Below, piece by piece: positions 46,827-57,501 of a stretch of DNA of 64,000 nucleotides. The stretch lies in the sequence record MZ170040.1. One strand, written 5' to 3'. Numbering within the stretch: position 1 is the first letter of the stretch; each line of letters begins with the position of its first letter. The notes below the pieces were generated by a model. It did not search any database. It was not told the DNA's origin and was given only the letters and a program-made list of their open reading frames with translations. This DNA is from Escherichia phage vB_EcoM_FJ1. The position numbers and the translations under genes are program-made.

Positions 46827-47462
46827 TCACAGTTCAGATGCTACAGTGATTACAGCTTCAATGTTTTCTGCCGAGCGTTTAATGTCAAGATACACATTAC
46901 CGTTTTTAGCGATTTTACATGACATTCCGATATCAGTAAATTTCTGAATATGATGTTCCATCATTTTGTATCCAAAAATTCGCATATTTCCATTGTTGTT
47001 AATTTCAAAATTACGAATTCCGTGAGTGCGTTTTTCTAAAATGGCAAGATAATTACTACGATAAGTTTCAACCTTTTTAAGAACAAATCCATTTTCATCT
47101 AAAAGTTTTAACATGAGGTCTTTATCTTCTTCCATATCAGAAGTAATCTCACGAGCTTTACGAGTTGCTCGTTTTTTCAGCAGTTCTGGAGCATTTTCTT
47201 GTGCGTATAAAGTTGCTGCATTTGAAATAATATCCTGAGCTTCACCAGTAATGATTAATCCATCACCAGATTTCTCCACCAGGCCTTTTTTAATCAATAC
47301 CCCAATATTACTATTAACTACTGCGTTACCTAAATCTGGATGCACCTCACGAACTTCTGCAGCTGTAATGAAATCTTTCTTAGCAATGGTAATTAAAATC
47401 GCAGCAGTTTTTTCATTCAGAACATCGTTAGAAGCTTTGATGATGTAAGTTACTTTAGACAT
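46827..47462 (-). CDS. motA: middle-transcription activator MotA
   Basis: 211 aa as T4 MotA. Confidence 0.9.
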   Translation of the reverse strand: MSKVTYIIKASNDVLNEKTAAILITIAKKDFITAAEVREVHPDLGNAVVNSNIGVLIKKGLVEKSGDGLIITGEAQDIISNAATLYAQENAPELLKKRATRKAREITSDMEEDKDLMLKLLDENGFVLKKVETYRSNYLAILEKRTHGIRNFEINNNGNMRIFGYKMMEHHIQKFTDIGMSCKIAKNGNVYLDIKRSAENIEAVITVASEL

Positions 47463-47524
47463 TTTCTAATCTCCGTAATTCTGTATCAGTAGTTGATAGT
47501 TGTATAGTACCACAGTATGCTTTG

Positions 47525-47565
47525 GTTGTAAACCGTTTTGTGAAAAAATTTTTGAAATAAAAAAA
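47525..47565 (-). promoter_or_regulatory. early promoter cassette upstream of motA, member of a repeat family
   Basis: Near-identical to 29585-29623. Confidence 0.6.
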
Positions 47566-47566
47566 G

Positions 47567-47584
47567 GGGAGCCGAAGCTCCCCA
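47567..47584 (-). terminator. intrinsic terminator hairpin
   Basis: GGGGAGC-TTCG-GCTCCCC followed by T-run on minus strand. Confidence 0.7.
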
Positions 47585-47588
47585 AAAA

Positions 47589-47735
47589 TTACTGTTCAAA
47601 CGCGATAACTATCGTGATAACACGCTGAATACCAAAAGCAAGAAGACCTCCTGCTACGGCTGGAACAACACCTACCCCCGCTAGTAAAATGCCGCCAGAT
47701 ACTAATGCTGCGCTTGTAATACCTACGAATGGGAC
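47589..47735 (-). CDS. candidate transmembrane peptide frame in-frame after the gene 52 stop, no canonical start
   Basis: 48 sense codons VPFVGITSAALVSGGILLAGVGVVPAVAGGLLAFGIQRVITIVIAFEQ immediately after gp52 TGA; good codon usage; ends 4 nt before terminator hairpin. Confidence 0.35.
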   Translation of the reverse strand, partial: VPFVGITSAALVSGGILLAGVGVVPAVAGGLLAFGIQRVITIVIAFEQ

Positions 47736-49064
47736 TCATTTGATTTCCTCTAAATCTTTGGTGTATTCTGTAACTACATCAGTAGTTTTCCAATATTCGT
47801 TTTCTTCTTTCTTAGCTTTAGCTTCTTCAGCAAGTTTCTTTGCTTCGTCGGAAGTCATATGAAAAATATTCATTCCGACTAGTTTATCAACATAAGAAGA
47901 ATACATATCGATTTTCGAAAGTTCTTCGGTCAGTTCTTTACGAGTTTTACCCTGCACAACGATTTCACCTGAAATTACTTTCTTAATGAAATGCGCCTTG
48001 GCAAAGGCTAAACGAAAAGCTGATTCAGTTTCTTTAATTTTGTTATCAATTCGTTTTTGAACATAAGTTTTACGAACTTCAACAAAGTCTTTAATTAAAT
48101 CAACTACGTTATCGTAAACTTGTAGTTTTCCTTTCTCATTAATAACCGTAATATTCTGAGAACGACGCTCAATCAACCCGAAGTCTTTCATGATTTTTGC
48201 ATGGCGTTCTTCTTCATTATCACTCAAAGAGTATTCTTTGCGGAATTTAATTTTAAAGCCAAAACCATGCTCACCACAAGCATCATCCCATGTAATGAAG
48301 CCTTTATCTTCAAGCGGGTCTAAGATTTTACTCACGTAAGTTTCACGATCATACTTATACGGAATCTCAGTGATATTCATTTGAGTTCGTGAAGTAAACT
48401 TGTACGTTCCACGAATTTCATATTGACCGTCAATTTCAACGACTTCACCGCGAAATTCTGGGAATTCTACCTTCGGTTTAGTTACTTTCTTTCCTTGAAG
48501 AGCTTGTAGTACAGCTTTCTTGACAGAAGAAACACTATGAGGAAGAATGTAAGTTGCATAACCAGTTGCAATACCGGAAACACCATTAAGAAGAACAGTA
48601 GGAATAATAGGCAAATAGAAAGCAGGCGGAATGTGTTCTTTATCTTGATGTACTGGAGCATATTCAGTATCTTTATACACGTTATAGAAATTTTTACTTA
48701 CACGAGCAAAAATATAACGACTTGCCGCTGCCTTTTGGACAGTACGAGAACCAAAGTTTCCTTGACCATCTAACAGAGGAAAGTTATTATTCCAAGTGTT
48801 AGCCATCAAAGCGCCCGCATCTTGTGCAGAGTTTTCGCCATGGTGATATCCAAGGTCCGCTACACCACCTGCAATAGAAGCAAGTTTGTGAAACTTATCT
48901 TTATTTCCTCGTGCTAAATCAAGGGCTCGAGCAATAACAAATCGTTGAACTGGCTTAAATCCATCAATCATATTTGGAATAGCACGATTTTCAACCGTGT
49001 ACATAGCATAAGCCAATGCTTCATTATCAATGATACTTTTTAAATCACGATTATTCAGTTGCAT
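47736..49064 (-). CDS. 52: DNA topoisomerase II medium subunit gp52
   Basis: 442 aa as T4 gp52; GyrA-like. Confidence 0.95.
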   Translation of the reverse strand: MQLNNRDLKSIIDNEALAYAMYTVENRAIPNMIDGFKPVQRFVIARALDLARGNKDKFHKLASIAGGVADLGYHHGENSAQDAGALMANTWNNNFPLLDGQGNFGSRTVQKAAASRYIFARVSKNFYNVYKDTEYAPVHQDKEHIPPAFYLPIIPTVLLNGVSGIATGYATYILPHSVSSVKKAVLQALQGKKVTKPKVEFPEFRGEVVEIDGQYEIRGTYKFTSRTQMNITEIPYKYDRETYVSKILDPLEDKGFITWDDACGEHGFGFKIKFRKEYSLSDNEEERHAKIMKDFGLIERRSQNITVINEKGKLQVYDNVVDLIKDFVEVRKTYVQKRIDNKIKETESAFRLAFAKAHFIKKVISGEIVVQGKTRKELTEELSKIDMYSSYVDKLVGMNIFHMTSDEAKKLAEEAKAKKEENEYWKTTDVVTEYTKDLEEIK

Positions 49065-50298: not shown

Positions 50299-50495
50299 CA
50301 TTTTACACCATTCCAAATTGTTTCAACCACAGATTTTAAACCATTTTGATGAATGTCCATTCCGACTACCGCCATCAAATAGATTCCAACTACAACTGAA
50401 CCTAAGGCAAAAATCAGCATGAAAATGAATAAAGCCGGAAAAATATTATCGAAAAACCATTCAATAAATGTAAAAGCACTGCGTTTACGCTTCAT
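50298..50495 (-). CDS. small membrane protein, 65 aa
   Basis: Track ORF starts at an upstream TTG; likely ATG 50495 (MKRKRSAF...) with GAGGAAAAT SD; one TM helix. Confidence 0.55.
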   Translation of the reverse strand: MKRKRSAFTFIEWFFDNIFPALFIFMLIFALGSVVVGIYLMAVVGMDIHQNGLKSVVETIWNGVK

Positions 50496-55651: not shown

Positions 55652-55681
55652 ATTATACCACATCCTTGTGGTAAAGTAAAC
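55652..55681 (-). promoter_or_regulatory. early promoter (GTTTAC-N18-TATAAT) with CCAC...GTGG stem-loop in spacer
   Basis: Minus strand GTTTACTTTACCACAAGGATGTGGTATAAT; -35 overlaps gene 39 stop. Confidence 0.6.
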
Positions 55682-57501
55682 TACTGACTCATCCATTCTT
55701 TGCGAAGGTCAGCATTATCTCCCATGAGCATTTCAAAAAGCTCTTTCCAATTCTCAGGAAGTTTAACAACATCATATACTGGGTTTTGAATCATCTCACG
55801 ATATTCAGATTTTTCCAAAGAGCCAAGTCCCTTAATATAACGGATGCTATGTTTAGGTAGAGCATCTTTAGCACTCTCATATTCAGCGACTGTATAAAAC
55901 CATTCTTGTTTTTTACCGACCTGAGCGATGATTACAGGAGTTTTGACAAAGCGAATTCGTCCTTGCTCAAACAATTCTGGCCAATTACTAAAAAACCCGA
56001 GCAGAGAAGGATAAATGCTTCCTAAACCATCATGGTCAGCATCAGTCATAATAGCAATATTATGATAATTCAAGTTTTCAGCTTTTTCACCAAGAACTAG
56101 ACCAGTGATTGCGCAAATATCAAATAGTTCTTTGTTTTTAAGCATATCAGCATATGACATACCCCAACTGTTGAGAACTTTACCGCGCAATGGATAACCA
56201 CCATGAAGTTCTTTATCACGAACATCAATAAGATATCCGATAGCAGAATCACCCTCAGTCAAGAAAAGAGTAGTGTCAGCATCTTTACCGCAAAGATTCG
56301 CTTTGATATGTTTATGAACTTTAGCTTTAGAAGCCTTTTTAGCTGCTTTAGTTTCAGCTGCTTTTTCTGCTGCCAATTTACGGGCCAAGGCAGCTTCAAT
56401 AATTGGCATCAAAATAGCTTCATTATTTAGAATAGCGCGTGAAATCTTTTTAGCATCAAGCTGAATATGACTACGAATTTCGCCAAATGGAGAAGTCAAA
56501 CGCTCTTTAGTTTGAGAATCAAATCGCATGTTTTTCATATCACGAACAAACATAACGATAGTCAAACATTCTTTAACACGTGCTTTAGTTACATCAATTT
56601 TGAATTTACGTTTGATTTGTGGAATAAGGTCTTCACAAATATCATCCATCACGCAGTCAATGTGATGGCCACCATTCTTAGTATGAATGTTATTGACGTA
56701 CGTCAACTGACGAAAACCATCAGGTGAACGACCAACCGCAATAGAACAATTTTCTTGTTCTTGAACGATAGCATGTTCATCATACTGTCGTGCATATTTC
56801 TTAAAATTGCCCTGAACCTTTTTACCATTAAAGGTAAATTGAATATCAGGATAAACAACAGCAAGTGTCTGGAGACGATCTAATGTAATGTCAAGATAAA
56901 CTTGGGACAGCTCATTAGTTTCAAATGACATAAAATCAGGAATGAAAGTAACACGAGTTCCTTTCCATTTTCCTGGAATAGTTTCCCATGATTTATTTTC
57001 CATGCCGTTTGAACAACGAACTACAATATTATTTTGACCATCGCCAGTTTCACCGACAAACATCACAGAAAAAATGTTTGTCAAACTAGAACCAACACCA
57101 TTCATACCGCCAGTGACGCGTTCTTTATCATCACCGAAGTTACCACCTGCTTTTGGAATAGTCCATGCAGCAACAGGACCAGGAATTTCTTCACCGGTAG
57201 GTGTTTTAACCATCGCCTGTGGAATACCGCGACCGTTATCTTCAACTGTTACTTGATTGTTTTTAATAGTAACATTAATTTTATTTGCGAATTTAAACTT
57301 AGTACGAATACCTTCATCTACTGAGTTATCGATAATTTCATCAATAAGCTTAACAAGACCAGGTACATACTGAACACTTTCCCATTTACCAAACAGAAAG
57401 CGCTCATGCATTTCATTAGCAGAAGAACCAATGTACATGCCGCTACGCTTTTTGATATGTTCAATATCGCTCAGAATTTTAATTTCATTCTTAATCATCA
57501 C
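55681..57501 (-). CDS. 39: DNA topoisomerase II large subunit gp39 (GyrB-like), unsplit 39+60 form
   Basis: 606-aa continuous ORF spanning ATPase and Toprim regions; no separate gene 60 and no intervening mobE/bypass gap. Confidence 0.9.
   Translation of the reverse strand: MMIKNEIKILSDIEHIKKRSGMYIGSSANEMHERFLFGKWESVQYVPGLVKLIDEIIDNSVDEGIRTKFKFANKINVTIKNNQVTVEDNGRGIPQAMVKTPTGEEIPGPVAAWTIPKAGGNFGDDKERVTGGMNGVGSSLTNIFSVMFVGETGDGQNNIVVRCSNGMENKSWETIPGKWKGTRVTFIPDFMSFETNELSQVYLDITLDRLQTLAVVYPDIQFTFNGKKVQGNFKKYARQYDEHAIVQEQENCSIAVGRSPDGFRQLTYVNNIHTKNGGHHIDCVMDDICEDLIPQIKRKFKIDVTKARVKECLTIVMFVRDMKNMRFDSQTKERLTSPFGEIRSHIQLDAKKISRAILNNEAILMPIIEAALARKLAAEKAAETKAAKKASKAKVHKHIKANLCGKDADTTLFLTEGDSAIGYLIDVRDKELHGGYPLRGKVLNSWGMSYADMLKNKELFDICAITGLVLGEKAENLNYHNIAIMTDADHDGLGSIYPSLLGFFSNWPELFEQGRIRFVKTPVIIAQVGKKQEWFYTVAEYESAKDALPKHSIRYIKGLGSLEKSEYREMIQNPVYDVVKLPENWKELFEMLMGDNADLRKEWMSQ

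Follow-up and report, generated by a model that had tools for sequence, protein, structure and literature searches.

The interval directly downstream of gene 52 in Escherichia phage vB_EcoM_FJ1 (sequence record MZ170040.1) is, by homology and position, motA.1, a known T-even phage gene of 49 codons that is located between gene 52 and motA and was present in every Tequatrovirus examined. In the 64,000-nucleotide stretch that we analyzed, called the window throughout, its sequence makes it a disrupted allele of the motA.1 family rather than a functional member as written. The window copy carries a private one-base insertion, which we consider probably a genuine frameshift that abolishes or severely reduces the function of a dispensable accessory gene. 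The allele would be null or hypomorphic, and the gene is presumably dispensable given its small size, its accessory location, and the recovery of a phage genome carrying the allele.

The identity of the interval is supported by database homology, by gene order, and by the annotation of close relatives. In T4, the counterpart is NP_049874.1 (NC_000866, 163730..163879), described as "MotA.1 hypothetical predicted periplasmic protein," and the family carries the labels PF26886 (Phage_T4_Y16H) in Pfam and 3487 in PHROG. The region is 92 to 98% identical to several hundred Tequatrovirus genomes, where the interval is annotated as motA.1. When the window sequence is repaired by removal of the extra base, its product matches PHROG 3487 over residues 1 to 49 of 49 with an E value of 2.8e-28. 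PF26886 was found on all 16 homologue clusters, and database homologues are almost all 49 amino acids long. The window peptide is 83% identical to T4 MotA.1 and, downstream of codon 3, 100% identical to that of phage ELT1. As annotated in T4, RB32, UFV-AREG1, Aplg8, ELT1, PST, CrRp10, slur03, Sf24, KRT47, EC128, AndreasVesalius, and OE5505, the motA.1 coding sequence is 150 nt long and has its ATG start in a 4-nt overlap (ATGA) with the gene 52 stop codon; the translation in these relatives, MSPF[I/V]GITSAALVSG..., is the transmembrane (TM) peptide of the window read from that ATG.

Most elements of the gene are still in place in the window. The ATG used as the annotated start in relatives lies at 47737..47739 on the minus strand, with the same 4-nt overlap with the gene 52 TGA, and a putative Shine-Dalgarno sequence, GAGG (47747..47750, minus strand), sits within the codons for the gp52 residues LEE, 7 nt 5' of the ATG. 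A GGAGG or GAGG likewise precedes the overlapping start in other Tevenvirinae. Past the site of the frameshift, the body of motA.1 (codons 4 to 49 plus TAA; 47589..47730, minus strand) encodes FVGITSAALVSGGILLAGVGVVPAVAGGLLAFGIQRVITIVIAFEQ*, as assigned by DNA identity to ELT1 and by PHROG 3487. The synteny typical of the family is also retained, the gene following gene 52 directly and preceding the terminator and motA. The one family feature that the window lacks is the intact open reading frame (ORF), an ATG in frame with the 49-codon peptide.

Gene 52, which encodes the 442-amino-acid medium subunit of topoisomerase II, occupies 47736..49064 on the minus strand according to the ORF list; its product aligns with T4 gp52 from end to end at 99.3% identity, and 15 public contigs code for exactly the same protein. 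Its C terminus reads ...DLEEIK-TGA, with the stop codon at 47738..47736. Beyond this TGA, the gp52 frame remains open for 48 sense codons, VPFVGITSAALVSGGILLAGVGVVPAVAGGLLAFGIQRVITIVIAFEQ (47735..47592), and closes at a TAA at 47591..47589, and no in-frame ATG, GTG, or TTG was found across those 48 codons. An initial annotation of this DNA had pointed to just such a hydrophobic helix, encoded in the gp52 frame past the UGA and lacking a canonical start, and its description is borne out. In an AT-rich genome, an open run of this length would not by itself lie much above chance expectation; homology is what marks the run as nonrandom, residues 2 to 48 of the post-TGA peptide being a 100% match by tblastn to the annotated product of phages ELT1 and ECML-123-2.

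What the overlapping ATG (47739..47737, within ATGA) opens instead is an out-of-frame ORF of 47 amino acids, MSPIRRYYKRSISIWRHF... (47596..47739, minus strand), which ends at a TGA at 47598..47596 and is rich in Arg, Ser, and Cys, with AGG and CGG codons. Its product matched nothing in PHROG or Pfam, and a public gene index holds no record of such a gene in public assemblies. The two frames differ sharply in hydropathy, with a GRAVY score of +1.58 for the TM frame versus -0.80 for the 47-amino-acid ORF. We rejected the latter as a real gene, as it has no family match, is unrecorded, encodes what looks like hydrophilic junk, and shows no selection in its frame; the ORF arises as a side effect of the frameshift. 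The proposal that the TM frame is the real one and the ATG-initiated Arg/Ser/Cys frame its shadow thus agrees with both homology and selection.

The TM frame lacks a start codon because of one extra C in proline codon 3. Where relatives read ATG AGT CCA TTC (MSPF...), the window reads ATG AGT CCC ATT C, and the resulting CCC run (47731..47733, minus strand) is both the frameshift site and a CCC-A slippery context. With one C removed, the 150 nt of the window are 100% identical in DNA to motA.1 of ELT1. A 30-mer spanning the CCC had no match in 50,697 phage records, while a control without the extra C matched 11 of them. Degenerate CCC patterns likewise gave no matches in IMG/VR, JGI metagenomes, or GTDB genomes, and the corresponding CC patterns, run as positive controls, found four IMG/VR contigs and seven metagenome contigs, such that the normal allele was recovered in three of the four collections (phage records, IMG/VR, and metagenomes). 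All 20 contigs that encode exactly the gp52 or the MotA of the window have CC. Even the one relative in which no 49-amino-acid gene had been called (L033), with the same 274-nt spacing, carries an intact motA.1. By these searches, the extra-C allele is private to this genome among the collections covered. A decayed membrane-peptide gene, one of the three options in the initial annotation, is the one that these results bear out, motA.1 having its frame broken by one C here and being intact in relatives.

Conservation in relatives points to the ATG-initiated frame as the one under selection. An intact 49-codon ORF starting from ATG is present in all 44 relative loci, which comprise 28 distinct DNA sequences and 14 distinct proteins. 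Across this 44-locus set, variable sites in motA.1 number 10, 5, and 26 at codon positions 1, 2, and 3, respectively, and in a set of 15 sequences pN/pS was 0.28 for the ATG/TM frame compared to 0.80 and 1.53 for the other two frames. Residues 1 to 39 of MotA.1 are almost invariant among homologues. Purifying selection on the ATG-initiated frame means that motA.1 is a real gene, not an annotation artifact. The gp52 frame past the TGA, by comparison, reaches a stop within five codons in each of the nine relatives that were translated (*VHS* or *VHSLV...*), and the remaining 35 loci have the same CC junction as those nine. When asked of other T-even genomes, the question raised initially, whether the post-stop frame is kept, is therefore answered in the negative: what relatives share is a conserved ATG-initiated gene together with early stops in the gp52 frame.

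Whether the extra C is a mutation or an error can be weighed against the rest of the genome, and for this purpose some 60 kb of the window were set against T4, Lutter, and ELT1. Orthologues of roughly 95 T4 genes were recognized there, and motA.1 alone has lost its start or its frame. Among five small ORFs whose N termini failed to align with T4, cd.2, ndd.4, and 39.1 have a normal in-frame ATG, the difference in ndd.3 from T4 is a G common to the window, Lutter, and ELT1, and only motA.1 is without any start. Checked by hand against the coding sequence tables, the CCC is the sole isolated indel of a length not divisible by three inside an annotated coding sequence versus Lutter and ELT1; the remaining gaps of this kind versus T4, Lutter, and ELT1 are compensated pairs in divergent stretches, intergenic, or common to other relatives. 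Homopolymer errors are therefore not widespread in the assembly, although the absence of a genome-wide homopolymer signature neither proves nor excludes one single error.

A less likely but plausible alternative is that the extra C arose in sequencing or assembly and that motA.1 in the phage itself is intact and starts at the ATG, as in every relative. An allele unique among all the collections searched, consisting of a +1 change in a homopolymer, is what such an artifact would look like; removing the extra base gives 100% identity to ELT1, and the gene is intact and under purifying selection in 44 of 44 relatives. Another +1 change in a homopolymer lies at a distance of 170 nt, in the T tract of the terminator (47559-47565), which is T7 in the window and T6 in ELT1 and UFV-AREG1 (indel at 47565). 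This is the only other indel versus ELT1 within 170 nt of the CCC, and it fits either an error or natural slippage; single-base indels in intergenic T tracts are common natural variation among these phages. Against an artifact, miscalling CC as CCC in a run of only 2 to 3 bases is an unusual type of error for consensus assemblies, and the lack of any frameshift in the other conserved genes among the roughly 95 compared points to a very low error rate. The low homopolymer error rate and the uncommon type of error that would be needed therefore lead us to favor, by a modest margin, a real mutation over an artifact.

If the insertion is real, its consequences for expression can be proposed from the layout of the locus. 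In the normal gene, translation begins at the ATG of the 4-nt overlap with gene 52, served by the GAGG 7 nt upstream. With both the Shine-Dalgarno sequence and the ATG intact, ribosomes would be expected to initiate in the mutant, make M-S-P, and then read the 47-amino-acid nonsense frame. The insertion deprives the real peptide frame of its start and, by chance, places it in the phase of gene 52 after the UGA. At most, trace amounts of peptide might arise by spontaneous +1 slippage at CCC-A, and trace amounts of a gp52-Trp-TM fusion might arise by leaky decoding of the gp52 UGA. We regard slippage and UGA leakage alike as leakiness of a mutant allele rather than as mechanisms, because both lack conservation and the sequence shows no stimulatory element. 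That the extra C is real and a functional peptide is nevertheless produced, either by +1 slippage (MSPFVG...) or as a UGA-readthrough gp52-TM fusion, strikes us as improbable; if true, the window would hold a natural leaky allele reporting on recoding near a start codon.

Of the recoding routes, +1 frameshifting by tRNAPro at CCC-A in codon 3 has the most to recommend it, as a shift at ATG AGT CCC A/TTC restores exactly MSPF..., and CCC-A is the most shift-prone CCC-N context in vitro for the native UGG tRNAPro (Gamper et al. 2015; PMC4519876). The same study reports about 1% +1 frameshifting in E. coli for a slippery CCC-C next to AUG (PMC4519876). Still, we think it very unlikely that normal MotA.1 is made at a biologically useful level in this way. 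The site occurs in none of the 44 relatives and in no database sequence searched, no Shine-Dalgarno-like stimulator stands at the 3-nt spacing of the prfB type, and the next 0-frame codon, AUU, is neither a stop nor rare; with an expected yield of about 1% or less, this would be a leaky mutant and not a programmed device. More doubtful again is readthrough of the gene 52 UGA to give a functional membrane-anchored isoform of gp52 (gp52-Trp-48 amino acids). In its favor, no stop codon is leakier in E. coli than UGA, this genome alone has the TM frame following the gp52 UGA in phase, and the RB32 record labels gp52 "membrane-associated." Even so, the phasing is a side effect of a private 1-nt insertion, no element promoting readthrough is evident, and relatives show selection on the ATG-initiated frame as well as a stop within five codons in the nine that were translated and the same CC junction at 35 other loci. 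The early stops in the gp52 frame of relatives refute readthrough, an option of the initial annotation, as a conserved mechanism. Noncanonical initiation, also offered there, would account for a frame with no canonical start, for instance by use of the ATT that forms codon 6 of the open frame, as would termination-reinitiation after the gp52 UGA, but we reject this reading and give it the least credence of all. A strong Shine-Dalgarno sequence and an ATG only 1 nt out of phase, the latter being the normal annotated start in relatives, will capture initiating and reinitiating ribosomes, and the ATT has no Shine-Dalgarno sequence at a useful distance. Setting readthrough and noncanonical initiation aside removes a false lead, and a fitting label for the interval is "motA.1, frameshifted" (likely pseudogene or base-call error).

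The neighboring elements are those expected around motA.1. A terminator scan identified an intrinsic terminator, GGGGAGC-TTCG-GCTCCCC plus T7, at 47559..47583 on the minus strand (hairpin, 47583..47566). The initial annotation had correctly placed a GC hairpin terminator after the TAA; its spacing of 4 nt needs only the trivial correction that the hairpin, as measured, starts 5 nt past the TAA. A terminator is annotated at the equivalent site in Aplg8, Lutter, and OE5505, and "motA.1" has been used as a terminator label (PMC5931544). Farther along, a promoter scan placed a candidate sigma-70-like promoter for motA (TTTACA, 17-nt spacer, TG-TACTAT) at 47504..47532 on the minus strand, and Lutter has a promoter annotated in the equivalent place. 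The motA gene itself (46827..47462, minus strand) encodes the 211-amino-acid activator of middle transcription, is 98.1% identical to T4 MotA, and specifies a protein whose exact sequence is widespread. Some relatives have an extra ORF of 75 amino acids between the motA.1 terminator and motA (L030, 3111-3338; L004, 778-1005; also L032, L040, L045, L048, and L049). This ORF has no Pfam match and is absent from the window and from T4.

Several other differences from T4 were seen in the course of the comparison. At ndd.3 (50414-50494, minus strand), the window, Lutter, and ELT1 have ATGAAGCGTAAACG and T4 has ATGAACGTAAACG. The annotated 26-amino-acid Ndd.3 frame of T4 is without an ATG in the window, and the ATG frame there reads MKRKRSAFTFIEWFFD..., which means that T4 is the exception or that one group has the frame misannotated. 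A single uninterrupted ORF of 606 amino acids at 55681-57501 (minus strand) corresponds to T4 genes 39 and 60 together. About 64 nt (window positions 56017-56080) stand in place of the 60.1/mobA insertion of T4 and the 5' part of gene 60, which contains the 50-nt translational bypass. The large topoisomerase subunit of this phage thus appears to be fused and bypass free. Between about 39250 and 44050, no match to T4 gp38 was found, and the first 849 residues of gp37 show an identity of only 65%; the distal tail fiber/adhesin module is therefore of a non-T4 type. Both mobE and nrdB.1 are absent from the window, and SegG is 100% identical to that of T4.

MotA.1 is a very hydrophobic protein of 49 amino acids (GRAVY, about 1.6), rich in Gly, Ala, and Ser, and the peptide is presumably inserted in the membrane. 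For the database homologues, AlphaFold2 predicted one continuous helix spanning residues 3 to 48 (pLDDT, 89.6; pTM, 0.44; 15-sequence alignment). Searches for function by homology returned nothing from NCBIfam, PADLOC, or our local copy of Pfam, the last of which lacks or does not score PF26886. In the searchable literature on motA.1 or Y16H, we found one incidental mention only, the terminator label, and no expression or phenotype data.

Short hydrophobic ORFs of 23 to 49 amino acids, mutually unrelated in sequence, start overlapping the gene 52 stop in six lineages of Tevenvirinae, four of them unannotated. The annotated cases are the 49-amino-acid ORF of Tequatrovirus, which starts in an ATGA overlap, and a 26-amino-acid ORF in Mosigvirus (HX01), which starts in TTGA. 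ATGA overlaps also open the unannotated ORFs of Dhakavirus (PSD9; 34 amino acids), Gaprivervirus (CJ20; 29 amino acids), and Klebsiella phage PMBT63 (23 amino acids), and in Gelderlandvirus (UoN_LG358_1) an unannotated ORF of 45 amino acids uses an ATG 9 nt before the end of the TAG. By position, these micropeptide ORFs lie at 852-932 in locus L050, from 1097 in L062 and L063, from 1100 in L065 and L066, and at 47589-47739 in the window. An overlapping hydrophobic ORF at the gene 52 stop is absent in the more distant T4-like groups Ac42, Krischvirus, Tulanevirus, and Pseudotevenvirus. As a base rate, none of the 41 other long ORFs in the window has an overlapping hydrophobic ORF, and the recurrence at the gene 52 stop is therefore not due to chance. 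The micropeptides may be functionally linked to gp52, the medium subunit of the topoisomerase, and it is conceivable, if improbable, that they act as a membrane partner or tether of the T4 topoisomerase.

Some known recoding systems invite comparison. Like the start-proximal CCC-N sites described by Gamper et al. (2015; PMC4519876), it has a CCC-N near a start codon, in AUG AGU CCC A, where a +1 slip regenerates the wild-type protein; unlike the published high-frequency case, which is CCC-C at codon 2, the site in the window is CCC-A at codon 3 and is not conserved. Set beside programmed +1 shifts of the prfB type, the window has a slippery CCC-A, a GAGG 13 nt upstream where a stimulator would be spaced at about 3 nt, and an ordinary A-site codon, AUU; the shift site is not kept among relatives. 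With programmed UGA readthrough, as in the extension of the Qbeta coat protein to A1, the window has in common an open frame in phase behind a UGA; it differs in that this in-phase layout exists in this genome only and that relatives use their own ATG. As a gene, motA.1 resembles ac, 52.1, ndd.3, and ndd.4, which encode small membrane peptides in the 52-ndd region of T4 and are likewise very short, hydrophobic, early-transcribed accessory ORFs with overlaps of 1 to 4 nt, although MotA.1 has no sequence similarity to their products and forms a family of its own.
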